Shown in pieces: positions 1,796 to 51,878 of a DNA stretch of 64,000 nucleotides. The stretch lies in the NCBI GenBank assembly GCA_964417715.1, contig CAYQJG010000001.1:29297-93296 (forward strand), given 5' to 3'. Below the pieces are notes generated by a model. That model searched no databases. It was not told the origin of the DNA and saw only the letters and a list, made by a program, of their open reading frames with translations. Made by a program: the position numbers and the translations under genes. Position 1 is the stretch's first letter; each line of letters opens with the position of its first letter. This DNA comes from an uncultured Lentisphaerales bacterium (GTDB lineage Bacteria > Verrucomicrobiota > Kiritimatiellia > RFP12 > CAYQJG01).

Positions 1796-2371
1796 TTAGA
1801 CGGCCATCACTTCTGCTTCCTTACTCTTCAGTTCGGCGTCAACTTTGTTAATATGTCCATCCGTGCTCTTCTGGATGTCCTCAAAGCCCTTGTCGCGCTC
1901 GTCCTCGGTGATCTTGCCGTTCTTCTGCAGCGCCTTGACCGCTTCATTGGCCTCGCGCCGCACGTTGCGGATGGACACGCGCGCTTCCTCGGACTGCCGA
2001 CGAGCGACCTTGGCGATCTCCTTGCGGCGCTCTTCACTCAGCTCAGGAATCGGCACACGAATCACGCGCCCGTCGTTCAGGGGGGTGACGCCCAGGTTGG
2101 CGGCCAGAATGGCCTTCTCGATGTCCGGCAGCGCCGTCGGGTCGTAGGAATTGATCACGAGCAGGCGCGGTTCAGGCGTCGAGATGCCAGCGATGTCGCG
2201 CAACCGGGTCGGCACGCCGTAATACTGAACCTGCACGTTATCGACCATCGCGGGTGAGGCCTTGCCGGTGCGCAACCCCGCAAACTGATCGTGCAACACC
2301 TTGAGGGTGTTGTCCATCTTCTCCTCTGCATCCATCAGCACATCGTCTAGCGTATCCATCGGTCGCGTCAC
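1796..2371 (-). CDS. frr: Ribosome recycling factor
   Basis: 191 aa with a full-length RRF-like sequence (…[32 protein letters not shown]…). It overlaps the pyrH stop by 4 bp, the classic pyrH-frr arrangement. Confidence 0.92.
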
Positions 2372-3123
2372 TCCTGTTTGTCCGGCAGCGCCGCATCATC
2401 AATCACGAGCGTGCCGATCTGTTCGCCGCGCACGATCCGGTCCAGTGCAGCCTCGTCGAAGAAATCGAAGACGATGATCGGTATCCGGTTGTCCATGCAA
2501 AGCGCAAAAGCCGCCGAGTCCATGACCTTCAGCCGGCGCTGCAAGGCCTCCTGGTGCGTGAGCACGGTGTACTTCGTGGCCAGGGGGTTCTTCTTCGGAT
2601 CAGCCGAGTAGACGCCGTCGACCTTGGTGGCCTTCAACAGCACGTCGGCGCCGATCTCGCTGGCGCGCAACGCCGCCGCCGTATCCGTGGTGAAGTAGGG
2701 GTTGCCCGTGCCGCCCGCGAAGATCACGACCCTTCCCTTTTCGAGGTGCCGCAGTGCCCGGCGCTGAATGTAGGGCTCGGCCACCTGGGGCATCTCGATC
2801 GCCGTCTGGAGCCGCGTCTCGACGCCCAGACGCTCGATGGCATTCTGCAGCGCCAGCCCGTTGATGATGGTGGACAGCATGCCCATGTAATCACCCGACG
2901 TACGCGCAATGCCCCGCGTCTCGCCCTGGGTTCCACGAAAGATATTCCCGCCGCCCAGCACGACCGCAACCTGCACGCCCGCGGCGGCCAGCCGCTGAAT
3001 TCGGCGCGCGACGGCCGCGACGACGGTGGGGTCGATGCACTCGCCTGCATCCCGGTTGCCCAGCACTTCGCCACTCAACTTGAGCAGGATGCGCCGGTAG
3101 CAGATAGCGGTCTCGCTGGCCAC
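2368..3123 (-). CDS. pyrH: UMP kinase
   Basis: 251 aa, with [10 protein letters not shown]…[10 protein letters not shown]…[21 protein letters not shown] motifs of the UMP kinase / aspartokinase fold. Confidence 0.92.
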
Positions 3124-3208
3124 GTCCGATCTTGACCTTTCTGGTTCGGAATAGGATCGTTAAACAGCGTAGCCGAAACTGCGGGGCAGGACAATAAGAA
3201 AGGGCGGA

Positions 3209-5161
3209 TTATTCCGCCGTTACACCCAGGCGCAACACCGGCAGGACCTGCCTGCGCAAGGTGGTGTCCAGATCGAACAACGCGAAGCCGGGACAGCCGG
3301 AACGGCGCACCACCTGGATCTGGTCAATCACCTGCACCGGATCGAGCCGGCTCTCGGCCGCCGTGACGCCAATGCCGGGCAACACGCGGCGCCGCAGCGC
3401 GCGCCGCGCGGTCTGGTCCGCCACCAGTTGACTGAACGCGGCCAGATCCTCGGTATAGTCCATCGGGAGCACGTAGTCGACCAGCCCCTGCCCGATCCAG
3501 TCCTGCCAGTCCTGCCCCACCGCATCGACGCAGGACGGGTACTTGCCGAACACGGCCGCGGTCAGCATCCGACCGGGCGCCTCGCGGCGCATCTGCAGCC
3601 GGGTCTCCGCCACGAAATCGGTCACCATCCCACTGCGCCAGCGCATGAACTCGGCACACCGGCTGCCGCCCAGCTTGACGTCCTGCGGCCACGCCGCCAC
3701 CGGCCCAGCGTCGCGCTCAAAGCGCGGCCTGACCGTGGGCCCCAGGCTGCCGCCGTAATCGGGATAGCGCACGAAATCGAGGTGAATCCCGTCCACCGCA
3801 TAGCGGCCGGCCATCTCGCCGACGGCACGCTGCAGGTACGCGCGGACTTCCGGCACGGCCGGGTCGAGCCAGGGACGTTCGCGGCCGTCCTCGCCGCTCA
3901 GGAGCCACCCGCGCTGGCGGAAGACGGCCATCCGATCGGCCGTCGTCTGGGTCGTGCTGAAGCACAGGATCCAGGCATGCACGCGCAGGCCAAGCGGGCG
4001 CGCCGCGGCCAGGCAAGCCGCTAACTGGTCACCTTGCTCGATGGCCACCCGTGACATGGGCAACACCTCGCTGCGGTAGTGCGCAAAACCCGGCCCGGCG
4101 ACGTTGACCATCAGGTCCGAGAAACCGGCCTCCTTGATGACCCGGCAGGTGCGCGGCCAATCTCCCGGAAAGAGCCCCATGCCGGAATGCTCCCAGACCA
4201 CACGCATCTCGCCACGCCGCGGCGTCTGCAGCAACCCGTAAACCGCGTACATTTCGGTGCGCAATTCGACCGCCGCCTCCCAGGCCTCGAACCCCCGACC
4301 GGTTCGCAGGAGTTCGCGGGCGCGAGCATCGAGGCGACCAGCGCTTTGCGCCGCCATCACGGCCTGGCCGCGGCGCGCCGGATCGCGCAGCCGGCCGGCG
4401 GCCGCTTCGGCCTCAGCCGGACTCCCGAGGCTGCCGACGCGCCGTGCATCAACGAGCAACGGCGCCGCAGCCGTGGCCCAGAGCGTGGGATCACACGCGG
4501 CGGCCAGCGCCAGCAGCAGGCGGCTCTTGGCCGCGGCATCGCCGTCCGCCAGCAGCACATGCGTCATCCAGTACCCCTGCCGGGTCACCAGCCAGGCGGG
4601 CTCCGGCATCGTGCGCCCCTGCCGGTCCGTCCACCAGGCCAGCACATCCGAGCGTCCCTGCACCGGCTGGGCGAGCATCAGGTTGGGCGAAACCTGTTCA
4701 ATCTGTTCGGGCACGCCGCGCGGCCGCGCCGCTCCGAACCGCATGCCGGACCAGCGCCCCTCGGTCGTGCCGCGCACATACCCACTCAGACGGACACCCA
4801 TCAGTTCGGCCAGCGCCGGCGAGGCGGAATAACAGACGATCAGCCGTCCGCCCCGGTCCAGAAAGCTCTTGATGGCCGCCACATGCGCAGGTTGCGGCTG
4901 GGAGACATAGACCAGAACCGCCAGGCGCCTGCCCGCCAGCGTCGCAGCCAGTTGCGAGTCGTCGCGCAGGTCGACGTCAAGCCCGGCCTCGCGGTAGCCG
5001 CGCACGGCGTTTCGTGCCAGCGCCTTGGCGAAGCCCCGCTCAACGGCAGGCACGGTTTCACTGCCGTGCACCACCACAACCGAGGTCAGGGCCGACGCCT
5101 GCCATGCGCCAAGAAAGGCCGAGAGAAGGAGCAGGCGGCGTGAAGCGATCATAGCACGCAT
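3209..5161 (-). CDS. Secreted glycoside-hydrolase-family-10-like protein (GHL10/DUF4015-type, YngK-like)
   Basis: The DGIHLDFVRYP motif and the C-terminal half resemble the GHL10 family. Start trimmed to ATG at 5161 (MRAMIASRRLLLLSAFLGAWQASA, a signal peptide). The ORF track extends it 41 codons further upstream. Confidence 0.5.
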   Translation of the reverse strand: MRAMIASRRLLLLSAFLGAWQASALTSVVVVHGSETVPAVERGFAKALARNAVRGYREAGLDVDLRDDSQLAATLAGRRLAVLVYVSQPQPAHVAAIKSFLDRGGRLIVCYSASPALAELMGVRLSGYVRGTTEGRWSGMRFGAARPRGVPEQIEQVSPNLMLAQPVQGRSDVLAWWTDRQGRTMPEPAWLVTRQGYWMTHVLLADGDAAAKSRLLLALAAACDPTLWATAAAPLLVDARRVGSLGSPAEAEAAAGRLRDPARRGQAVMAAQSAGRLDARARELLRTGRGFEAWEAAVELRTEMYAVYGLLQTPRRGEMRVVWEHSGMGLFPGDWPRTCRVIKEAGFSDLMVNVAGPGFAHYRSEVLPMSRVAIEQGDQLAACLAAARPLGLRVHAWILCFSTTQTTADRMAVFRQRGWLLSGEDGRERPWLDPAVPEVRAYLQRAVGEMAGRYAVDGIHLDFVRYPDYGGSLGPTVRPRFERDAGPVAAWPQDVKLGGSRCAEFMRWRSGMVTDFVAETRLQMRREAPGRMLTAAVFGKYPSCVDAVGQDWQDWIGQGLVDYVLPMDYTEDLAAFSQLVADQTARRALRRRVLPGIGVTAAESRLDPVQVIDQIQVVRRSGCPGFALFDLDTTLRRQVLPVLRLGVTAE

Positions 5162-5173
5162 AGGAAACAACCC

Positions 5174-5698
5174 TTGCAGGCTGCGGGTCAAGCCGTTATT
5201 TTGCGGACCGTGACCAACCATTGGCAAGTCCTGTTCCTGAAACCCCGCACCGAAAAGAAGGTGGCCGAGGTGTGCCGCGCACACCGCCTGCCCTACTACC
5301 TGCCGCTGCAGACCACCACGAAGACCTACCAGCGCCGCAAAGTCACGTCAACCAAGCCCCTGTTCCCGGGCTACCTGTTCGTCGCCGTCGCTCAGGAGCA
5401 GAAGATGCTGCTGCAGCGAACCAGCCACGTGGTGCGGTTTCTCGTGCCGCACCAGCCCTTCCACATGCTGCGCCAACTGGTGCAGGTGCGCCGGGCGCTG
5501 CGGGCCGACCCCGCGTTGCGGCCGGTCAGCGCCCTGACGAAAGGCCGGCGCGTGCGCATCATCGGCGGGCCCTTCCAGGGCATGGAAGGCACCGTCACGC
5601 GCCTGGCGAGTTCCATGCGCGTCGTGCTGACCGTCGAGATGATCGGCATGGGCGTGGCTGTCACCGCCGAGATCGCCCAGGTCGAACCGCTTCGGTAG
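5174..5698 (+). CDS. NusG-family transcription antitermination paralog (NGN + KOW domains; RfaH/UpxY-like specialised NusG)
   Basis: WQVLFLKPRTEKKV…PLFPGYLFV (NGN) followed by GRRVRIIGGPFQGMEGTV (KOW). The track start is a TTG; the true start is probably the GTG near 5209. Confidence 0.65.
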   Translation: MQAAGQAVILRTVTNHWQVLFLKPRTEKKVAEVCRAHRLPYYLPLQTTTKTYQRRKVTSTKPLFPGYLFVAVAQEQKMLLQRTSHVVRFLVPHQPFHMLRQLVQVRRALRADPALRPVSALTKGRRVRIIGGPFQGMEGTVTRLASSMRVVLTVEMIGMGVAVTAEIAQVEPLR

Positions 5699-5711
5699 AG
5701 CCTGGAAAACA

Positions 5712-5752
5712 GAAACTGGAAACTGGGGTCGTGTCCCCCGCGTTTCCAGTTT
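5712..5752. terminator. Putative bidirectional stem-loop between the convergent NusG-like gene and pckG
   Basis: Imperfect inverted repeat GAAACTGGAAACTGGGG…CCCCGCGTTTCCAGTTTC in the 79-bp convergent intergenic gap. No U-tract follows, as expected for a high-GC genome. Confidence 0.35.
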
Positions 5753-5777
5753 CAAGTCTCCAGTCTCTGGCCTTCGC

Positions 5778-7601
5778 TCAGGCCTTGGCGAGGCGGGCCT
5801 TGAGCCCTTCGAGTTCGGCCTTAAGGGCGAACGGCACCTTGTTGCCGTACTTCCGGTAGGACTCCTCGACGCTCTCGATCTCCTTCTTCCAACCGGCCAC
5901 ATCGACCTTCAGGAGTTCCTGCATGTCGGCCGTCGTGACACTGGTGCCAGTCAGATCGATGGCATCCGGCGTCGGCAGCACGCCAATCGGCGTTTCGACC
6001 GCCTTGGCGGTGCCTTCGATGCGCTCGCAGATCCACTTCAGCACGCGGCTGTTCTCGCCGTAACCCGGCCACAGCCACTTGCCTTCAGCGGTCTTGCGGA
6101 ACCAGTTCACGAAGAATACCTTGGGCAGCTTCTTCGGATCGGTGCGCAGGCCGAAACTCAGCCAGTGCAGCAGGTAGTCGCCGACGTGATAGCCGCAGAA
6201 CGGCAACATCGCGAACGGGTCGCGACGCAGCACGCCGGCCTGCCCGAGCGCGGCTGCCGTCGTCTCCGAACCGGCCGCCGAACCCATGAACACGCCGTGA
6301 TTCCAGGAGTAGGCCTCGTTGACCAGCGGGATGGTACTGGGGCGGCGTCCGCCGAAGAGGAAAGCGCTGATCGGCACGCCGGCGGGGTCTTCCCACTCGC
6401 TGGCGATCACCGGGCACTGACTCGCGGGCGCCGTGAAGCGCGCGTTCGGGTGGGCAGCCTTGACGGCCTTGCCGTCGGCATCGCGCATGGCCGGCGTCCA
6501 GTCCTTGCCCTTCCAGTCGATCGCATGCGTCGGCGCAGGCACGCCCATGTCTTCCCACCAGATGTCGCCGTCGTCGGTCAGCGCGACGTTCGTGAAGATG
6601 GTGTTCTTCGTGATCGTGTCGATCGCGTTCGGGTTACTGGCGCGCGAGGTACCGGGCGCCACGCCGAAGAAGCCGAACTCGGGATTGACGGCGTAGAGGC
6701 GTCCGTCCTCACCGATGCGCATCCAGGCGATGTCATCGCCAATGCACTCGACCTTCCAGCCGGGCAGCGTCGGCAGCATCATGGCCAGGTTGGTCTTGCC
6801 GCAGGCGCTCGGGAAGGCGGCCGCGACATAGTGTGACTTGTGTGCGGGCGAGGTGAGCTTGAGGATCAGCATGTGCTCGGCCATCCAGCCCTCGTTGCGC
6901 GCCAGCACGGAGGCGATGCGCAACGCGAAGCACTTCTTGCCCAGCAGGGCATTGCCGCCGTAGCCGGAGCCGAACGACCAGATCGCGCCATCGTCGGGGA
7001 AATGCACGATGTACTTCTTGTTCGGGTCGGGCTCGCAAGGCCACGGCACATCCTTCTGGCCCTTCTTGAGCGGCGCGCCCACGGAGTGCAGGCAGGAAAC
7101 GAAATCGCCATGCTCACCCAGCGCGTCCAGGGCCTTCTGCCCCATGCGGGTCATGATGCGCATGTTGATCACCACGTAGGGCGAATCGGTAATCTCGATG
7201 CCGATCTTGCCCACCGGCGACCCGATCGGTCCCATGGAGAAGGGAATCACGTAGAGCGTGCGACCCTTCATGCAGCCCTTGTAGAGCGCCCGCATCTCGG
7301 CCTTCATCTCGTCCGGATCGCGCCAGATGTTGGTCGGGCCGGCATCCTCCTGCCGGGCAGAGCAGATAAACGTGCGATCTTCGACACGCGCCACGTCGGA
7401 CGCATGCGAACGGGCGAGGAAACACCCGGGACGCTTGACAGGGTCCAGGCGCGTGAAAACGCCCTTCGCCACCATGATCTCGCAGAGCGCATCGTACTCC
7501 GCCTGGGAGCCGTCGCACCATTGCACAGACTCGGGCTTGCAGAGCTTGGCCATCTCGTCTACCCAGGCCAACAGCTTCTTGTTTTGAGTGGGGTTCTGCA
7601 T
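5778..7601 (-). CDS. pckG: Phosphoenolpyruvate carboxykinase (GTP)
   Basis: 607 aa with the full-length GTP-PEPCK signature (…[16 protein letters not shown]…, kinase-1a P-loop). Confidence 0.93.
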
Positions 7602-11857: not shown

Positions 11858-13252
<1,395 letters not shown>

Positions 13253-14397: not shown

Positions 14398-14580
14398 GCG
14401 CGTTCGTTTCACGCCGCATGGATACCACAGCGTGCCCGCAGCGTCAACCGGATGGCGATGCATAAGCGAGGCCAAGCAAGCATGCCCGTAAACATGCAAC
14501 CGATTGCCAAAGCCCCACTCGCGGCTGGACGGATTGCATCTGTCCCGCCCTCGTCCATAGCGTCGAGCCATCCACATCCC

Positions 14581-14775
14581 AACCCGCGCGTGCGGGCCGC
14601 ATCAATCACGCTGGCGCGCCGCTCGCAGACCGCGCCGCAGGCCGTCACACGGTCCGCGACGCGGAGTCTATCCATCACCTGTCGATATTATCCCGCCTCT
14701 CGGTCGCCTCGGTCCCTCCCGCCCCGTCGCGGCCCATCTGCACCTTCCGTTCACCGAATCGTGTCACACACGTTG
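14581..14775 (+). repeat. Intergenic direct repeat, copy 1 (~190 bp), left flank of the AT-rich R-M islet
   Basis: Begins AACCCGCGCGTGCGGGCC…CACGCTGGCGCGCCGCTCGCAGACC…GGCCGTCACACGGTCCGCG…CCATCACCTGT. About 85% identical to copy 2 over the first ~100 bp, with similarity continuing for ~190 bp. Confidence 0.6.
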
Positions 14776-14806
14776 TGAGTGAACGGAGAGCGAACCGCGC
14801 AGCGGG

Positions 14807-15751
14807 TCACTCGCACGTTCGACTCACTTGTTGGGTGATGTACTCTGCTCTTTCCTCCAAGAGCATCATCTGCTCTGGCTTTGGTTCCTGCCCATGATTA
14901 TGTTTCTGGATGTTTGCCGGAAAGTTGAAAACCAGCGCCTCAACTACAGACCTACGGTTTTCGATCCTTCCTCCAGAATGGTAGAAATGGTCTCGCGTCA
15001 CGATGTTGAACTTTCTCCAAAGCGAATCAATGAAGGGATTGGAACGATAATCGTTGTGGTGCCAAGTCGAGAGTATGAACCGCGCCGGCGAGGTCGAGAG
15101 GAGCATAAACAGTCTCTCCTCATCCTCTTCCTTCCATCCGCTATAATAGTCAACATAGCGCCCGATGTAGGGCGGATCGCAGTAAATGATGTCGTCTTTG
15201 GTCGCTTCGGCAATGGCCGCCGCGAAATCCTCGACACTGAACGTCCATCCCGACTGGATCAGACACGCAACATCATGCACCTGATTCACGATCTTCGTCA
15301 CGTATGCCGGAGCGAACCGTTCTGGTTTCTGACAAAATGGTATATTCCATCCCCCTTTCCGGTTAAACCTCATCATCCCATTGAACCCGGCACGGGAGAG
15401 AAAGAGGAAATCCAGCGGGTCATGTGACTGGTTAAAACGATCTCTGACGGCTCGGAAGTGCTCGTACCCCTTGTCCGGTGCTTTTTCAAGCAGCGCCCCT
15501 TCACGCTCGAGGTACTCGCGTACACATCTCGGTGTGATCTCGCGGTTCTTGATTGCTTGGTAGAACCGAATGAGGTGGGGGTTGACGTCGCCCAGCAGTG
15601 CCTCGCGAAAACCAGAGTTGAAAGCGACAACTCCGGTTCCGAGGAAAGGTTCAATCCACCGGCCCTTAACGACTGGCACTAGCGCCTGAATCCAAGGCAC
15701 CAACTTCGTCTTAATGCCTTGACTCTTGATCGGGGGGGTAATCACGCGCAT
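14807..15751 (-). CDS. Dam-family (alpha-class) DNA N6-adenine methyltransferase
   Basis: Motif I-like EPFLGTGVVAFN and the catalytic DPPY motif (IIYCDPPYIGRY). It lies in a markedly AT-richer segment than the flanking DNA and overlaps the downstream nuclease gene. Confidence 0.8.
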   Translation of the reverse strand: MRVITPPIKSQGIKTKLVPWIQALVPVVKGRWIEPFLGTGVVAFNSGFREALLGDVNPHLIRFYQAIKNREITPRCVREYLEREGALLEKAPDKGYEHFRAVRDRFNQSHDPLDFLFLSRAGFNGMMRFNRKGGWNIPFCQKPERFAPAYVTKIVNQVHDVACLIQSGWTFSVEDFAAAIAEATKDDIIYCDPPYIGRYVDYYSGWKEEDEERLFMLLSTSPARFILSTWHHNDYRSNPFIDSLWRKFNIVTRDHFYHSGGRIENRRSVVEALVFNFPANIQKHNHGQEPKPEQMMLLEERAEYITQQVSRTCE

Positions 15752-16674
15752 ACTGCCTCGGCGGTTTTAGTCTTCTTCTTCGTTGTCATCGGCACAATCC
15801 TGCGTTTGTCCCCACGTTTGAAGTCGAGAAAGTCCTTGATTGACCTGATCGGAGATGCCTTGCCTCTCTTCAGACGCGAAGTGACTCCGTGGTTCATCCA
15901 GTATTCGTCAAACCACTCCTCCCCGAGTCGAGCGAAGACGCCGTTTCCGCTTAGTATGTCTTCAATCCAAGTGATCGACCCGATGTTTGCGGTGTTGCCA
16001 GAACCTTGCTTGTCGCTTGCGAGACGCCACTTCTCGCAAACAAAGAATTGGAAGTCCCGGACCACGGAAGCAATTGACCGAAGGTTGTCAACAGAAGTCA
16101 CGCTGTAACGATGAGTTGGTTCGGCAACTGGACCATCCTCCAACTCCTTGACATGGACAATTTCAGTGTCGGCCAAGTCCTTTGCCGCAGTTCTCGTGTA
16201 GATGATTCCCAGGCAGAAGTGACCGGAGTACTCCGAATATGGAAATTGGATGTTCTTAGTGGACGTTCGCTCCTTGAAGTAGGCGCCGTGGCTGCCGAGT
16301 GTGAACCCATTTACGTGGCCGGGGAAATCCGGATCGCGGTACGTAGTCTTAAGGTCAACAGCAAACTTGACGGTCTGGTTGCTCTGCTTGACAAAACTGA
16401 AGTCAGGATACCAGTTCTGGTGTTCGGCCAGGACGATCGAATACCCATTGTCCTGGGCGAACTGGAGAATCCTCGGGAAGAGGTGGATCTCAAGGATTTT
16501 GGAGACGATCTTAGTGTCGGAACTGATTGTGTAAATGTTCTTGAAGATGTCGATAAAACCCTTGACCGTCCACTGCCCGTTTTCAGCCGAAACATACCCG
16601 CCAAGTCCCCTAACGAAATCCGTCAGGGCGTCCGAAAACGCTTCCTTTTCCGTCTGTCGCTCTTTGTTGTTCAT
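15742..16674 (-). CDS. Putative Type II restriction endonuclease (PD-(D/E)XK-like), partner of the Dam-family methylase
   Basis: Same strand as the methylase, with a 10-bp overlap, and the same AT-rich composition. A candidate PD…DLK motif (WYPDFSFVKQSNQTVKFAVDLK) is present. Recognition specificity (GATC?) is not determinable from sequence alone. Confidence 0.5.
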   Translation of the reverse strand: MNNKERQTEKEAFSDALTDFVRGLGGYVSAENGQWTVKGFIDIFKNIYTISSDTKIVSKILEIHLFPRILQFAQDNGYSIVLAEHQNWYPDFSFVKQSNQTVKFAVDLKTTYRDPDFPGHVNGFTLGSHGAYFKERTSTKNIQFPYSEYSGHFCLGIIYTRTAAKDLADTEIVHVKELEDGPVAEPTHRYSVTSVDNLRSIASVVRDFQFFVCEKWRLASDKQGSGNTANIGSITWIEDILSGNGVFARLGEEWFDEYWMNHGVTSRLKRGKASPIRSIKDFLDFKRGDKRRIVPMTTKKKTKTAEAVCA

Positions 16675-17190
16675 TTGGTCCTTTTCATCTTCTCACTCAC
16701 CATTGAATAGGTGGCCAGACGCAATCCACCGGTTCGAGGGGGTTAACAGCGCCGATACACACGGTTCATTCTATTCTGAAGAACGGTACGAGGTCAAACT
16801 CCCGTGACAACAACTCACAACTTGCGTACCGGCAATAACTTACGAGTCTGCCGCCCCGACGAATGGCGCAGTTCGCGATAGTGACGTCATGCCCGGCCAG
16901 GCGGTGCGTAACGGCCGGACGCGATCCACGGGTGAAACGATATGAGTTCGACGCAAGCCACTGACCTGCATGACGTTGACTCCTATTGGAAAGTCGGAAT
17001 CTGGTGGACGACAGGCACCGCCCCCACTTCCTGCGATGGCTCCAACGGTTCCTGTCGGGGCCTTGGGTGCCTATTCCGATGGTTTAGCGGGGTCAAGCGG
17101 GAGTTCTCGGCCCAAAACTGCGAGAGTTGGGCGCGACACCTGTTCACGCGGCGCACTCGGGGCTCGCGCTCTGGATCGGACGAATCGCTC

Positions 17191-17375
17191 AACCCGCGCG
17201 TGCGGGCCTCAGCCGTCACGCTGGCGCGCCGCTCGCAGACCCGGCGCGGGCCGTCACACGGTCCGCGCCGAGGATTCCATCACCTGTTGCGTTTGCCTCG
17301 CGCGTCGTTCGCGTCGTTTCGCCCCGTCCAGTTGTGGTCCATCTGCGCCTTCAGCACCCACTCACGCAAGTACTT
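17191..17375 (+). repeat. Intergenic direct repeat, copy 2, right flank of the R-M islet, ~105 bp upstream of the next + strand gene
   Basis: Homologous to copy 1 and to copy 3 across ~185 bp. A separate 23-bp match (AAACTGCGAGAGTTG-GCGCGA) at 17117 recurs at 20795. Confidence 0.6.
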
Positions 17376-17479
17376 CTCACAAGACCGGAACGGGCGACGC
17401 CCCCGTTGACACCCGTCCCGATTCCTGCTAGCTCTATGTCCACATATCCGGCGCAACCCGTCAAGGAACCTGACCTGCC

Positions 17480-18658
17480 ATGTCCCCTTCATCCAGTACC
17501 GTATCGTCGCGCTTCGCGCACGTCACGCTCGTCGACCCCGCCAGCACGTTCATCGCTCCGGACGTGGACGCCGCCCGGATCGCACCCGGCAGCGTGATCC
17601 ATCCGGGCTGCCGGTTGTCGGGGGCCACGCTGTCGATCGGCCCCGGCTGCATCCTCGGCGAGGAGGGACCGCTCACCGTGCGCGACTGCCAGTTGGGCGC
17701 ACGGGTACGGCTGGGTGGCGGCTTCTTCGACCATGCCACGCTACTGGATGATGTCAGCGGCGGCAACGACGCACACGTACGTCCCGGCTGTCTGTTCGAG
17801 GAAGCCGTCACGTTCGGACACGCCGCCGGTTTCAAGCAGACGATCCTGCTGCCGTTCGTCACGACCGGCAGCCTGATCAACTTCTGCGATTGCCTGATGG
17901 CGGGCGGCACCAGCCGCCGCAACCATTCCGAGGTCGGGTCGTCCTTCGTGCACTTCAACTACACGCCTCATCAGGACAAGGCCACCGCTTCGCTGATCGG
18001 CGACGTCGCGCACGGCGTCCGGCTCGATCAGGCGCCCATCTTCCTCGGCGGTCAGGGCGGTCTCGTCGGGCCCATCCGCATCGCGTACGGAACAGTGCTC
18101 GCGGCCGGCCAGATCACCCGGCGGGACGTGACCCAGGCCGACCGGCTGATCCTGGCACCCGGCGGGTCGCCCATCGACCGGCCTCACGCGCCCGGCCGGC
18201 GCAGCGGCCTGGGCCGTGTTGTGGCCAGCAACCTGATCTACATCGGCAACCTGCTCGCTCTCGATCAGTGGTACCGTCACGTGCGCGTGCCCCGCCTGGC
18301 GGGCGCGCCCTGGCAAGCGGCCTGTTGCATGGGCGCGCTGTCCCGGCTGAGCGAAGCCTGTGAGGAACGCCTGAAGCGTCTCGACGAACTGGTTGCGTCG
18401 GTCGCCGCCCGACCCGACGCCGATGCATCGGGCAGCCGCCTGGCCGCCGGCTGGCCGGCTATCCGGCACGCCCTGGCGGATCACATCGCCGCGCGTACAC
18501 GCACCCCCGCGCCCGCGTGGGCCGTGGCCGCGCTTCAGATCATACCTGACGGCGACTACCTCCGCGGCGTCCAAAGCCTGCCGGCTGAGGTGAAGTCGGC
18601 CATCACGGCCGGACTCCAGTCGCGGGTCGACGACGTCGCGTCCCTGTGGCAGGTGTAG
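17480..18658 (+). CDS. Left-handed beta-helix (hexapeptide-repeat) protein, putative acyl/acetyltransferase (GlmU-C/LpxD-like fold)
   Basis: Multiple imperfect hexapeptide repeats (…VRLGGGFFDHATL…IFLGGQGGLVGPIRIAYGTVLAAGQ…). ATG at 17480. Confidence 0.55.
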   Translation: MSPSSSTVSSRFAHVTLVDPASTFIAPDVDAARIAPGSVIHPGCRLSGATLSIGPGCILGEEGPLTVRDCQLGARVRLGGGFFDHATLLDDVSGGNDAHVRPGCLFEEAVTFGHAAGFKQTILLPFVTTGSLINFCDCLMAGGTSRRNHSEVGSSFVHFNYTPHQDKATASLIGDVAHGVRLDQAPIFLGGQGGLVGPIRIAYGTVLAAGQITRRDVTQADRLILAPGGSPIDRPHAPGRRSGLGRVVASNLIYIGNLLALDQWYRHVRVPRLAGAPWQAACCMGALSRLSEACEERLKRLDELVASVAARPDADASGSRLAAGWPAIRHALADHIAARTRTPAPAWAVAALQIIPDGDYLRGVQSLPAEVKSAITAGLQSRVDDVASLWQV

Positions 18659-21249: not shown

Positions 21250-21470
21250 AACCGGCGCCTCCGTCCTGTCGGCGGCGCGTTCGCAGACTCCGGCGCGGGC
21301 CGCCACCACACTCACCTGTCCTCCCGGCACACCCGCGCCGCTGATTACATCCATCATCTGTTGAGGTTATCACGCGCGTCGGTCGCATCGTTCTTTCCCG
21401 TCCAGGTGCGGTCGATCCGCACCTTCCGCACGCACTCGTGCAACAGCTCTCGCAGAACGGGGACAGCGCA
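21250..21470 (+). repeat. Intergenic direct repeat, copy 3 (diverged, with a ~30-bp insertion), ~90 bp upstream of the M23 peptidase gene
   Basis: …GGCGGCGCGTTCGCAGACTCCGGCGCGGGCCGCCACCACAC…CCATCATCTGTTGAGGTTATCACGCGCGTCGGTCGCATCGTTCTTTCCCGTCCAGGTGCGGTC… aligns with copy 2 (…CCATCACCTGTTGCGTTTGCCTCGCGCGTCGTTCGCGTCGTTTCGCCCCGTCCAGTTGTGGTC…). Confidence 0.55.
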
Positions 21471-21561
21471 CGGTGCTTGACGCGACGGCGCCCATGCAGA
21501 AGAATGGGGCGCCTCACATCACCCGGCCTGAGCGCCGGGGCAAACGCATCGGCACCCGCAC

Positions 21562-47372: not shown

Positions 47373-49079
47373 TCAGGTGTAGCGCAAGACTTCGTCCACC
47401 GTGGTATATCCGTCGAAGACATTGCGGATGCCGTCCTCGCGCATGGTGCGCATGCCGAGTTCACGCGCTTTCTCGCGAATGAACAGCGTAGGCTTGCGAT
47501 CATTGATCAACTGGCGGATCGGCTCGGTCAGTCGCAGGTACTCAAACAGGCCCTTGCGTCCCTTGTAGCCCGTGCCATTGCACAGCGAACAGCCGCGTCC
47601 GTAGTAGAACGACCGCCCCGCCACATCCGGACGCTTCAGCGACATCCGCGCCAGCACATCGTCGTCGGGCTCGTAGGCCTGCTTGCAGTTGGAGCAGATG
47701 GTCCGCACCAGGCGCTGACCCAGGATGGACTCGAGCGTGGAGGAGATCAGGTAGGGTGCCACCTGCATGTCAATCAGTCGGGTGACGGCGCCGGAGGAAT
47801 CGTTGGTGTGCAGGGTACTGAACACCAGGTGGCCCGTCAGCGAGGCCTGGATCGCGATTTCAGCCGACTCCAGATCGCGGATCTCACCGATCATCATCAC
47901 ATCGGGGTCCTGACGCAGGAAGGCGCGCAACACGTTGGCGAACGTGTTGCCGGTCAGGGGGTTGATCGGCACCTGGATGATGCCGTCGATGTCGTATTCG
48001 ACCGGTTCCTCGGCCGTCAGCAGTTTCTGGTCGATCGTGTTGATGCGGTTCAGACAGGCGTAGAGGCTGGTCGTCTTGCCCGAGCCGGTCGGCCCGGTGA
48101 CGATGATGATCCCGTTCGGCTTCTCGATGTCGAGTGTCAGCGCCTCGAACACGTCCTCGGGCAGGCCGATGTTCTCGATATCCAGCGACACGACGCTGCG
48201 GTCGAGCACGCGCAACACCACGCTCTCGCCAAAACGCGTCGGCAGGCAGGACACGCGCAAGTCGATGTGGCGGCCCGCGACCGTCAGCGAGATGCGGCCG
48301 TCCTGCGGCATGCGCCGCTCGGCGATGTTGAGGTTGGACATGACCTTCAGGCGCGAGATGATCGGCAGCGCCAGGCGCCGCGGCGGCGGCTGCATCTCGT
48401 AGAGCGCACCGTCCACGCGGTAGCGGATGCGGAACTCCTTCTCGAACGGCTCGAAGTGGATGTCCGACGCGCGGTCGGCGACGGCCTGGTAGAGCACCAG
48501 GCTCACGAACCGGACGACCGGGGCCGAACCGGCGGCCTGCTCGATCCCCTTCTCGTCCGCGGTCTCATCCACGGCCAGCGACGCATCCTGCTCGATGATC
48601 GTCTCGAGGTTGGACAGCATGTCATTGACGGTCTCGCTCTCGTCGCCATAGAACTGGTTGACGCGCGCGCGGACATCGACTTCACGCGCCATGACGAAGG
48701 CCACGTCGCGCGTCAGGACGAACATCAGTTCGTCCATGACATGCGGCTCGACCAGCATGGACGTGGCCAGCGTGATCGTGCCCGGCTGCATCGAGACGGG
48801 CACCACGTTGTACATGCGCGCCACGCTGGCCGGCAGGCTCCGGATGACGTCGGGGGTGATCTCGTAGGTGGTCAGATCGACCACGTCGCACCCCTGGTAG
48901 GCGGCCATCATGCCGAGCAGGTCGTCCTCGGTGGTGTAGCCGGTGTCGATGATCAGGTTGCGCAGCGGCTTGGCGGTGCGGTCGTGCTCCTCGCGGAGCT
49001 CCTGCGCCTGCGCTGCGTCCATGATCCCGTTGCTGACCGCAAGATCCAGAATGGAATCGAAATGCTCCGGGGTGCTCAT
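47373..49079 (-). CDS. GspE/PilB-family type II secretion / type IV pilus assembly ATPase (paralog 2)
   Basis: N-terminal GspE_N domain, Walker A (GPTGSGKTT), Asp and His boxes, and a C-terminal CxxC…CxxC zinc motif. Confidence 0.85.
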   Translation of the reverse strand: MSTPEHFDSILDLAVSNGIMDAAQAQELREEHDRTAKPLRNLIIDTGYTTEDDLLGMMAAYQGCDVVDLTTYEITPDVIRSLPASVARMYNVVPVSMQPGTITLATSMLVEPHVMDELMFVLTRDVAFVMAREVDVRARVNQFYGDESETVNDMLSNLETIIEQDASLAVDETADEKGIEQAAGSAPVVRFVSLVLYQAVADRASDIHFEPFEKEFRIRYRVDGALYEMQPPPRRLALPIISRLKVMSNLNIAERRMPQDGRISLTVAGRHIDLRVSCLPTRFGESVVLRVLDRSVVSLDIENIGLPEDVFEALTLDIEKPNGIIIVTGPTGSGKTTSLYACLNRINTIDQKLLTAEEPVEYDIDGIIQVPINPLTGNTFANVLRAFLRQDPDVMMIGEIRDLESAEIAIQASLTGHLVFSTLHTNDSSGAVTRLIDMQVAPYLISSTLESILGQRLVRTICSNCKQAYEPDDDVLARMSLKRPDVAGRSFYYGRGCSLCNGTGYKGRKGLFEYLRLTEPIRQLINDRKPTLFIREKARELGMRTMREDGIRNVFDGYTTVDEVLRYT

Positions 49080-49080
49080 A

Positions 49081-50172
49081 TCACTTTCCCCTTGCCTGCA
49101 GTTCTTCCTTGAGTTTCGCCACCAGCGTGTCCGGATCCTGCGACTTGGTGATCACGTCCTCGTAGTGGATGAGCCCCTTCAGGTAGAGCTCGAGCAGATG
49201 CGAGTCCAGCGTCGTCATGCCGTACTTGGAACCGGTCTGGATATCGGATGTGATCTGGAAGGTCTTGTTGTCGCGAATGCGCGCGCGAATCGCCGGCGTG
49301 GAGATCATGACCTCGAAGGCCGCCACGCGGCCCGGCTTGTCGGCCCGCGGCAGCAGCAACTGCGAGATCACCGCCACCAGGCCGACCGACAACTGCGTGC
49401 GCACCTGTTCCTGCCGGTCGGTCGAGAAGGCGTCCACGATGCGGTCGACGGTCGTGGCGGCGCCGGTCGTGTGCAGCGTGGCGAAGACAAGGTGACCTGT
49501 TTCGGCCGCCGTGATGGCGGCCTGCATCGTCTCGAGGTCGCGCATTTCGCCGACGAGAATCACGTCCGGGTCCTGGCGCAGGCCGCGGATGATCGCCTCG
49601 GCGAAGCTCGGCACGTCCACGCCGATCTCACGCTGCGTGACGATCGACTTCTTGTGGTTGTGGTAATACTCGATCGGATCCTCGATCGTCACGATATGGG
49701 CGTCGCGCTCGACGTTGATGATGTTGATCATGCTGGCCAGCGTGGTCGATTTGCCCGAACCGGTGGGGCCGGTAACGAGAATCAGGCCGCGCGGGCGGAA
49801 CAGCAGCTCCTTGACCTGGTTGGGCAGGCCGATCTGCTCCAGTGTGAGCAGTTTGGAGGGGATCAGACGCAGGACGACGCCCACGTTGCCCTTCTCCTTG
49901 AACACGCTCACGCGAAAGCGCGCCAGTTCGCCGAATCCGAAACCGAAGTCGGTGCCGCCGCGCTCGCGCACCTTCTGCTGATGCTCGGCCGATGTGATGC
50001 TCTTCATCAGCCGCTCGGTGTCATCGGGCGTGAGCGGCGCCGCGTCGAGCGGATTAAGCGCCCCGTGGATGCGCAGGATCGGCGGCACGCCCACGCGCAG
50101 ATGCAGGTCCGACGCGCCTTCGTCGAAGGCCAGCTGCAACAGATCGCTCATCTCAACGGCAGGGTTGCTCAT
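49081..50172 (-). CDS. pilT: Type IV pilus retraction ATPase PilT
   Basis: 363 aa. [21 protein letters not shown] Walker A and the PilT-specific C-terminal region. ATGA start/stop overlap with the upstream gspE-like gene. Confidence 0.88.
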
Positions 50173-51878
50173 CAGTCCGCGTCTCCCATCGTCGCCCGCA
50201 ACACTTCTTCCAGCGTGGTCATGCCGGAGGCCACCTTCAGCAAGCCGTCCTCGCGCAACGTCCGCATGCCCATTTCGCGCGCACGGGCGCGCAACTGGGT
50301 CGACGGCAGGTGGTCGAAGATCATGCGCTGGATGCTGTCATCAACCGGAAACATCTCGAAGATGCCTTTGCGCCCCTTGTAGCCGGTCAGCGAGCAGACC
50401 GGGCAGCCGCGACCGCGGAAGAGTTCGCCCTTGGCCGTCTCGCGCGCGGCGCTCCCGAGCATCTTCATCTCGCGATCCGTGACGACATGCCGCTCGCGGC
50501 AGCTGTCGCAGATGCAGCGCACCAGCCGCTGGGCCATCGCCGCCCGCAGGGCCGATGCCACCAGGAACGGCTTCACACCGATGTCCAGCAGACGGGTCAC
50601 CGCGCTGGGCGCGTCGTTCGTGTGCAGCGTGCTGAACACCAGGTGACCGGTCAGCGCGGCCTCCATGGCGATATCGGCCGTTTCAGCGTCGCGGATTTCA
50701 CCGATCATCACGATGTTGGGTGCCTGGCGCAGGATGGCGCGCAAGGCGTTCGAGAACGTGAGACCGACGTCGCGGTTGACCTGCACCTGGTTGACGCCCG
50801 TCATCTGGTATTCGACCGGGTCCTCGACGGTGATGATCTTGCGATCGGGCAGGTTGATCTGTCCGAGGCAGGCATAGAGCGTGGTCGTCTTTCCCGAGCC
50901 GGTCGGCCCCGTCACCAGCAGCACGCCGTCCGGCAGCGCGATCAGACGCTCGAAGCGCTGCTGGTCATCGGACAGGAATCCGAGCTGCGGCAGACCGAAG
51001 GAGATCGTCTGCTTCTCGAGCAGACGCATGACAATGCTCTCGCCGTGGTTGGTCGGCACGGACGACACGCGCAAATCCAGTTCGCGGTTGCGGACATTGA
51101 CCTCGATGCGGCCGTCCTGCGGCACGCGTTTCTCGGAGATCTTCATGCCCGCCATGATCTTCACGCGCTGCAGGATCGCCGCCTGCAGCCGCTTGGGCGG
51201 CGCATCCATCTCCAGCAGCACGCCGTCGATGCGGTAGCGCACGCGGAACCGCTTCTCCATGGGTTCCAGGTGGATGTCGGAGGCGCGCCGGCGGCAGGCC
51301 TCCATGATGATCATGCTGACGAGTTTGATGACCGGCGCGTCGGAATCCGTCGATTCGGTGCCGGCGAGCTTCTCGTCCAGCGTCTGCGACGACACCTCCA
51401 CCTCGCCGTCGGCCATCTGGCCGATCAACCCCTCCATGTCGGTTTCGGAGGGGTAGAGCTTGTCGATCGCCGCCGTGATCTCCTTGCGCGAGGCTGTCAC
51501 CGCCTCGATCCGGCACTTGAGCAGGTAGCCCAGGCTGTCGAGCGTGTCGTAGTTCATCGGATCGCTCAACGCCACGGTCAGGGCGTCGCCGTTCCGGTAA
51601 AGCGGCACGACGCCGTACTTGCGCACGGCGTCGGCGGTCATCAGGTCGCGCACGTTCTGGTCGATGGTGGCAGGGTCGATGTGCACCACCTCCATGCCGA
51701 ACTGCGTCGCCACGAGGCTGAGAACATCCGCCTCGGCGATCACCTTCATGTTCAACAGGATGTCGACGACCGTCTCGCCTTCCTGGCGCAACGACATCGC
51801 GGCATTGTCAACCTGTTCCTGTGTCACCAGGCCGTGTTCCTGCAGCAGCTGCAGCACATAATCGTCGTTCGAAGTCAC
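50172..51878 (-). CDS. GspE/PilB-family type II secretion / type IV pilus assembly ATPase (paralog 1)
   Basis: Same architecture as paralog 2, with the CDSC…CPVC zinc motif. 568 aa. Confidence 0.85.

Follow-up and report, generated by a model that had tools for sequence, protein, structure and literature searches.

Integron cassettes move as circles by attC recombination through the integron integrase, and known attC sites have lengths of approximately 57–141 nt. Single attC sites lacking an integrase (SALINs) are common in genomes and can arise when the integron integrase inserts a cassette at non-canonical genomic (attG) sites (bioRxiv 10.1101/2022.09.11.507474; the word "duplication" is absent from the text of that study); integron cassettes are, furthermore, enriched in small Type II and IV restriction-modification (R-M) systems (bioRxiv 10.1101/2024.07.02.601686). 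Insertion with long target duplication has been described in all types of R-M systems, the published repeats measuring 24–423 bp with identities of 87–100% (PMC2853133). The DNA analyzed here comprises 64,000 nt from an uncultured Lentisphaerales bacterium (contig CAYQJG010000001.1 of GenBank assembly GCA_964417715.1, positions 29,297–93,296) and is referred to, at its full length, as the window; it contains an AT-rich island with an R-M gene pair resembling the EcoRV system of small Escherichia coli plasmids. This island is probably a solitary, partly decayed integron-type cassette with an EcoRV-like R-M system; one copy of a host repeat lies on either side of it, and the window contains a third. 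The nearest relatives of the host are metagenome-assembled genomes (MAGs) labelled Kiritimatiellia, Lentisphaerae and Verrucomicrobia, lineages distant from the bacteria on which integron research has been done. The features of the cassette are the following:

14771–16702, minus strand: the whole putative R-M gene cassette, ~1932 nt; the only stretch with DNA homology to cassette copies elsewhere.
15742–16674, minus strand: R, EcoRV-family Type IIP restriction endonuclease, 310 aa; upstream of M.
14807–15751, minus strand: M, Dam-family/D12-class N6-adenine DNA methyltransferase, 314 aa, with DPPY and FLGTG motifs.
14764–14836, minus strand: attC-type site, 72 nt, overlapping the last 30 nt of M; assigned by homology, and the best covariance-model match in the window.

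According to the list of open reading frames (ORFs), the island contained exactly two genes, both located on the minus strand with a 10-nt overlap; an earlier note on this DNA had likewise described two overlapping genes only, a Dam-family DPPY methylase and a putative PD...DLK nuclease. The methylase assignment was borne out by the matches of M to MethyltransfD12 (PF02086, E 4e-41), TIGR00571 dam (E 3e-53) and the PADLOC model MTase_II (E 9e-114); that of the nuclease could be refined to the EcoRV family, as R matched Endonuc-EcoRV (PF09233, E 1.1e-107), the solved EcoRV chains of the PDB (E 2e-36, phmmer) and PADLOC REase_II (E 1.7e-38). The segments ypDFs, avDlK and GSGNTaNIGSI of R align with ypDFt, aiDiK and GSGNTtNIGSI of EcoRV, i.e. 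the catalytic PD...D-x-K residues (equivalent to E45, D74, D90 and K92) and the GSGNTxN recognition loop are conserved (structures 1az0 and 1rve). M shared 52.8% identity, across 95% of its length, with the methylase encoded beside R.EcoRV on small E. coli plasmids (NC_019982), and R was 32.6% identical to R.EcoRV. Because R corresponds to EcoRV in family, residues and loop and M is this closely related to the plasmid methylase, the target of the system is probably GATATC; M would confer N6-adenine methylation and R would cut the unmethylated sites. In contrast to the EcoRV system, the restriction enzyme of the window is ~65 aa longer (310 versus 245 aa), the two genes are co-directional (R before M, with the 10-nt overlap) instead of being placed on opposite strands, and the unit is chromosomal and positioned between integron cassette sites instead of residing on small E. 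coli plasmids. An EcoRV-type pair on a Rhodothermus plasmid is also co-directional with R first, as in the window.

Contigs carrying close R homologues were fetched for their context (referred to as L092, L095, L101, L104, L105 and L108). The module of R (~310 aa) followed by M (~314 aa) was present in at least seven unrelated contexts, mostly with the same 10-nt overlap. DNA homology of the window to these loci was limited to positions 14770–16699 (79–83% identity), a stretch that runs from ~25 nt upstream of R to ~37 nt past M; it starts at (C)G/TTGGGTGA and ends with ...CACTCACAACG/TT (the slash marks the boundary), which corresponds to a G/TTGGGT boundary at the 5′ side and a G/TT boundary at the 3′ side. 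In both L095 and L108, the R-M module measured 1936 nt and was a single unit within an extended series of small genes sharing one orientation (27 genes in 18 kb for L108), in which nearly all intergenic regions end in a hairpin followed by GTTRRRY. Other bacteria have close copies that stand alone amid housekeeping genes.

The attC sites measured in these arrays span 55–84 nt. In the R-M family, the site has the layout R″-L″...L′-R′ with an extrahelical base on the L″ arm: ACCCAAC-AA-GTGAGT[C]GAACG complements CGTTCACTCAC-AAC-GTTGGGT around an 11-bp central stem. In 17 of the 22 array cassettes, R″ matched the reverse complement of the 5′ core of the same cassette exactly (at most one mismatch in 20 of 22), this complement being located 48–77 nt before the cassette's own 3′ junction; in none of the 22 was it the exact complement of the downstream core. 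A match to the own rather than the downstream core is the signature of cassettes passing through a circular form, and the R-M cassette obeyed this rule exactly in the arrays L095 and L108 as well as in the solitary copies of L092 and L101. In an alignment of six R-M attC copies, 86.7% of the cells were paired versus 23–47% when the partner was slid, and four pairs exhibited compensatory changes; the single-stranded DNA fold yielded z values of −5.3 to −6.3 for the array copies and of −2.2 and −2.75 for the window copy. A covariance model built from 14 attC sites of other cassettes, with no R-M attC in the training set, recovered the R-M attC exactly where it had been predicted to lie in L108 (E 1.2e-4), L092 (E 6.5e-4) and L095 (E 1.2e-3), and it also detected several attC sites outside its training set. 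Rfam searches of the region and of the arrays gave no relevant family; no attC family was matched even in the arrays.

On the minus strand of the window, the attC-type site reads R″ ACCCAAC (14836–14830), spacer AA, L″ GTGAGT[C]GAACG, the central stem-loop, L′ CGTTCACTCAC and spacer AAC, followed by the G at 14771. The top match of the covariance model in the 64 kb, both strands included, was exactly 14764–14836 on the minus strand (14.2 bits, E 0.35). R″ and both L boxes are intact and the central stem contains two mismatches; the R′ half is lost (G/TGTGTG instead of G/TTRRRY, 3 of 7 pairs), and TGGTGAG at 16702–16696, in place of TTGGGTGAG, represents a degenerate 5′ core. A second attC was found in the 64-kb window neither by pattern scan nor by covariance-model search, and no integrase, transposase or other recombinase was present among its ~45 genes. 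The window thus holds one cassette with one (sub-threshold) attC and no further attC or integrase, as defines a solitary cassette; a complete integron with intI and attI beside the cassette was encountered neither here nor in L108 and L095, which are devoid of a recombinase as well. The locus shares with SALINs the attC arms, the extrahelical base, the G/TT boundaries, the occurrence in arrays elsewhere and the missing integrase; it differs in that the window copy is without R′ half-site and 5′ core and would probably fail a standard attC scan. This signature of the unit itself, an attC with G/TT boundaries, had been overlooked in the mobility reading of the earlier note.

The AT-rich character at ~14.8–16.9 kb claimed there was confirmed: sliding GC values formed a trough of 0.50–0.56 across ~14800–16900, with 0.64–0.73 on both sides. 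The cassette has a GC content of 0.520 versus ~0.67 in its flanks, and the third-codon-position GC (GC3) was 0.66 for R and 0.63 for M in comparison to 0.78–0.90 for most host genes in the window. Since these GC3 values lie inside the range of the relatives in other hosts (0.54–0.73), no amelioration of the cassette toward the host is indicated. R has thousands of homologues, among them proteins of 70–90% identity, and some of their contigs are annotated as Verrucomicrobia, Marinimicrobia, Deltaproteobacteria and Pirellulaceae. Close relatives of the host are absent among sequenced genomes, and its flanking proteins revealed more distant relationships: the GlmU-C-like acyltransferase (LbH; gene at 17480–18658) had a best GTDB match of 58% identity and, in a collection of 5.8 billion proteins, a next relative past the self-match of 72%, and the DsbD-like membrane protein had a closest metagenome relative of 73% amino acid identity. 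As judged from the low GC and GC3 together with R relatives of up to 90% identity in several phyla versus at most 72–73% for the host flanks, the R-M unit is a horizontally acquired compact Type II system; the horizontal acquisition proposed earlier holds in this respect. The cassette is located in the divergent intergenic region between the genes of the DsbD-like protein and of LbH, in a neighborhood of core metabolism and translation (PEPCK, RRF, AsnRS, GatCAB, glycogen phosphorylase, QueA, L20).

The cassette lies between two copies of a host repeat, here designated T, and is separated from the right one by a spacer, designated X:

14580–14768, plus strand: T_L, left copy; 3′-truncated, profile positions 1–187 of ~214; abuts the attC end; GC 0.71.
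17190–17399, plus strand: T_R, right, full-length copy; ends ~80 nt upstream of the LbH gene.
21259–21472, plus strand: T3, third copy; 71–73% identical to the others, without the first ~21 positions and with a 21-nt insertion.
16703–17189: spacer X, 487 nt between the cassette 5′ end and T_R; outside the cassette.
16813–16827, plus strand: right arm of an inverted motif, ACTCACAACTTGCGT.

The same-orientation repeats of the earlier note are real and start sharply at 14580 and 17190, though the ~190 bp and ~85% identity given there are slight overestimates: T_L and T_R were 78.6% identical over 168 nt by blastn (E ~1e-33) and 80% identical (133/166) by alignment. They share a 19-mer for which 0.23 chance occurrences are expected in the window. 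Identity declines along the repeat from 92% through 85% to 71%. The third copy, which had been missed, likewise occupies a divergent intergenic region: on one side is a minus-strand NTP-transferase gene, on the other a plus-strand M23 peptidase gene, ~90 nt upstream of which T3 ends. At profile positions 1–52, T_L and T_R agreed in 48 of 52 residues and T3 was unrelated; at positions 53–92 they agreed in 35 of 40. At positions 93–163, the agreement of T_L with T_R (49/71, 69%) was not higher than that with T3 (52/71 for T_L and 54/71 for T_R, 73–76%), so that T_L and T_R are not each other's closest relatives over the whole length. According to these alignments, only ~92 nt (90% identity) are specifically common to T_L and T_R; the remainder is background family similarity. 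No conserved reading frame, coding capacity, terminal inverted repeats or Rfam match was found for T. The full-length copies T_R and T3 each stop 80–90 nt ahead of a cell-envelope gene on the plus strand, so T may be a leader or other regulatory element instead of a mobile one. A structured RNA was considered and rejected: GC-rich stems are present, yet the three copies showed no convincing covariation.

Spacer X has a GC content of 0.55 near the cassette and of 0.62 at its far end; neither homology to the other cassette loci nor a recognizable ORF was detected in it, and neither a controller (C) protein nor any domain was found in ORFs of X or of the repeats. X also contains the best sigma-70-like promoter directed into R (TTGACC-18 nt-TAGAAT, 16797–16768, minus strand). 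The short inverted motif that had been reported at the inner edges of the island is present (14766–14780 and 16813–16827, 13 of 15 positions complementary), although nine comparable pairs occur in the same 5 kb, so that the pair alone is at chance level; the sequence GTTGTGAGT at 14772 corresponds, in reverse complement, to the L′ box of the attC together with its spacer. The idea that the lost 3′ tail of T_L is to be found at 16813–16845 (motif ACTCACAAC) was rejected: the alignment was no better than with shuffled sequence (p ~0.6–0.7), and the reconstructed element scored no higher than the actual sequence. In a fragmentary assembly made independently (JGI 3300059473), contigs break at window ~17161–17173, i.e. 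17–29 nt outside the T_R edge, which may reflect population heterogeneity at the junction or a mere assembly break.

The course of events that would account best for these features is as follows. A promoterless cassette of ~1.93 kb (14771–16702, minus strand), consisting of R, then M and a 72-nt attC hairpin at its end, would have entered the intergenic region; since T_L is cut off where the attC end abuts, the arrangement suggests that this end joined the chromosome inside a T copy. Most likely, although this is the least certain step, the T copies pre-existed, one of them was truncated by the insertion, and their first ~92 nt were partly homogenized later; pre-existing copies are favored by the overall identity of 80%, by a 3′ half that is no closer than to T3, and by the unameliorated cassette. 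Transcription of R and M would most likely proceed from a promoter in the 487-bp upstream spacer X. The cassette is probably fixed in place now, because both of its cores are decayed.

Several observations weigh against this interpretation. Because an integron integrase was seen on none of the cassette-carrying contigs, including L108 with its 18-kb array and L095, the integrase-dependent movement is deduced from the site architecture alone. With a covariance score of only 14.2 bits, the assignment of the window attC leans on homology to the better-preserved copies. A simple recombination of attC with a genomic site, as in the attG insertion model, predicts neither the spacer X nor the long direct repeats at the flanks. 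The succession of a truncated left T, the insert and a full right T is the layout expected of a long target duplication. GATATC is not depleted (9 sites in the window versus 5.1 expected, none inside the island); avoidance of the site was thus not seen in the 64 kb, a stretch too short to judge it. A lack of avoidance would fit a recent arrival, for which 64 kb are likewise too little for a judgement.

The repeats, too, are probably not bystanders, since flanking repeats of at least 80 nt were present in 3 of 7 independent cassette contexts versus 4 of 358 control segments (1.1%; arbitrary 1.9-kb segments whose 2.5-kb flanks were scanned for such repeats), corresponding to a binomial probability of ~5e-5 at the control base rate. 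The solitary copy of L092 is flanked by direct repeats of 109 nt (97% identity) and that of L101 by repeats of 89 nt (89%), both of them locus-specific; no homology was found among the repeats and spacers of the window, L092 and L101. In L092, the repeated sequence is formed by the 3′ end of a small ORF, which weakly matches a DnaA-C-like helix-turn-helix. In L101, the repeat is joined with the spacer into a longer unit, which is also found ahead of the neighboring EcoRI-type R-M cassette: spacer copies of ~350 nt, each ending exactly at G/TT, stand before the EcoRI-type and EcoRV-type cassettes alike, and the 89-nt repeat begins directly after each attC. It is conceivable, if rather doubtful, that long repeats beside solitary copies are a by-product of cassette entry into chromosomes, or that cassettes are preferentially captured between host repeats; for the by-product, one possibility would be single-strand attC insertion in which replication or template switching duplicates tens to hundreds of target bases.

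Two further observations concern the surroundings of these loci. L101 contains at 2100–7150, on one strand, three DNA-modification units (an EcoRI-type M and R, the EcoRV-type R and M, and an N4/N6 methylase), and downstream of its first repeat a 50-aa ORF beginning with MLYVGVDAHQETSQ, which gave no Pfam hit and which we take to resemble the N-terminus of an IS110-family transposase. One of the four positives in the control scan was a pair of paralogues within the window itself, where three genes of T2SSE-family secretion/pilus ATPases lie side by side at 47373–51878 (568, 363 and 568 aa); those of 568 aa are the paralogues, with ~70% DNA identity over 737 nt.

Among the alternatives to a solitary cassette inserted into pre-existing repeats, an insertion with long target duplication in the mode described by the Kobayashi laboratory (Nobusato et al. 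2000; Furuta et al. 2010, PMC2853133) would mean that the unit together with X entered one T, that ~187 nt were duplicated and that the copies diverged afterwards. The topology T(1–187), insert, T(1–214) with its sharp shared 5′ boundary conforms to this, as does the repeat flanking of the solitary copies in L092 and L101 in view of the control rate. Furuta et al. require that both R and M be enclosed, that the insert be below 20 kb and the direct repeat above 30 bp, and that mobility genes be absent within 5 coding sequences (PMC2853133); here R and M lie inside a 2.4-kb insert, the host direct repeats fall within 24–423 bp and no mobility genes are near. Their limit of 10 extra repeat copies applies genome-wide (PMC2853133), whereas the one extra T copy counted here refers to the 64-kb window only. 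However, the copies are only 80% identical, below the 87–100% of the published cases, and at positions 93–163 their 69% is no closer than the similarity to T3 in spite of an unameliorated cassette; T3 demonstrates that T multiplies without any R-M system, the repeats of L101 belong to a longer repeated unit found beside a different cassette as well, and the R-M unit of the window bears its own site-specific recombination signature. A long target duplication is therefore considered unlikely. The proposal of the earlier note, an insertion of Campbell type or by recombination that duplicated a resident element, meets the same third copy and the same 69% in the 3′ half, which do not agree with a clean duplication, and, in addition, the 490-bp non-cassette spacer (16703–17189) between R and the right repeat.

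A homology-driven or Campbell-type import, in which DNA of a related strain or species comprising cassette, X and a diverged T recombined with a resident T, would explain the divergence of the copies, as expected of homeologous partners, and the host-like GC of the repeats (0.71) and of the far end of X (0.62); the 92-nt tract of 90% identity could then be a crossover or conversion tract, and the assembly break close to the T_R edge in the independent assembly of the same population would fit. Nevertheless, neither a donor-like arrangement nor a plasmid or circular form turned up. The conserved repeat 26-mer was absent from the JGI metagenomes; the import only shifts the origin of the repeat-flanked structure to the donor, and a single crossover leaves unexplained why the 3′ halves are as different as those of unlinked family members. 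We regard such an import as improbable. The L101 unit, with its ~350-nt segment ending in G/TT before both cassettes and its repeat directly after each attC, raises the possibility that T belongs to a small non-autonomous mobile or recombinogenic element tied to cassette junctions; T_L likewise begins at the attC junction, and three same-orientation copies of T occur within 7 kb. This is very improbable in view of T3, which adjoins no cassette, of the missing terminal inverted repeats, coding capacity and Rfam match of T, which bears no similarity to the L101 and L092 repeats, and of the IS110-like fragment of L101, which has no Pfam support.

No empty site was found across the GTDB, metagenome and protein searches. 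The best relative in a GTDB scan with LbH (58%) was not syntenic; the exact 26-mer of the repeat was absent from the JGI metagenomes; a metagenome scan with the DsbD-like protein returned only the 73% relative, which has a different upstream ORF and no LbH gene there, and the LbH protein search only the 72% relative, which is preceded by a PLD-family gene. Strain-level contigs obtained by exact-protein look-ups (97.8–99.9% identity) all carry the island and T_L. Samples containing this population are JGI 3300059473 and 3300045131 as well as SRR21424279 and SRR21424292.

In the contigs of the 73% DsbD-like relative (L081:149–352 and L082), the upstream ORF that takes the place of LbH appeared by eye to be a PIN/VapC-type toxin fragment; the region upstream of the DsbD-like gene may be a variable spot that gathers toxin- and defense-type genes. 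In the strain-level contig L084 (JGI 3300045131, 97.8% identical), the match stops inside R at window 15973, just upstream of the recognition-loop codons, and is replaced by 51 nt of unrelated sequence (L084:1–51), which could be either a chimeric contig end or a truncated R allele carried by that population. L084 also differs by ~15% from the window in the 5′ part of the AsnRS gene (11860–12352), with near-identity elsewhere; a recombination boundary at the island was rejected as the cause of its divergence, as the mismatches cluster in that part of AsnRS instead. In L104 (4992–6892) and L105, the R-M pair is wedged between serS and tilS with intergenic DNA of only 8 nt and 14 nt; this copy is without recognizable attC (R″ is absent) and without flanking repeats, and looks fully domesticated.

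Each component of the locus is of an already known kind; the spacer X and the non-random association with repeats stand out. Because the repeats of this locus are a host family with mosaic similarity, an R-M islet with direct repeats alone is no evidence of Campbell integration or target duplication. The excess of flanking repeats at solitary copies provides a small testable lead on the interplay of R-M cassettes and host repeats; if the by-product or the capture version were true, it would give the "insertion with long target duplication" of R-M systems a mechanistic basis tied to integron biology. The locus represents a natural example of the solitary-cassette route, which has been described experimentally only recently. 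A compact EcoRV-type R-M system circulates, according to this comparison, as an integron cassette among uncultured environmental bacteria of several annotated phyla, and such a cassette can end stranded and decayed amid core genes with its R and M intact.

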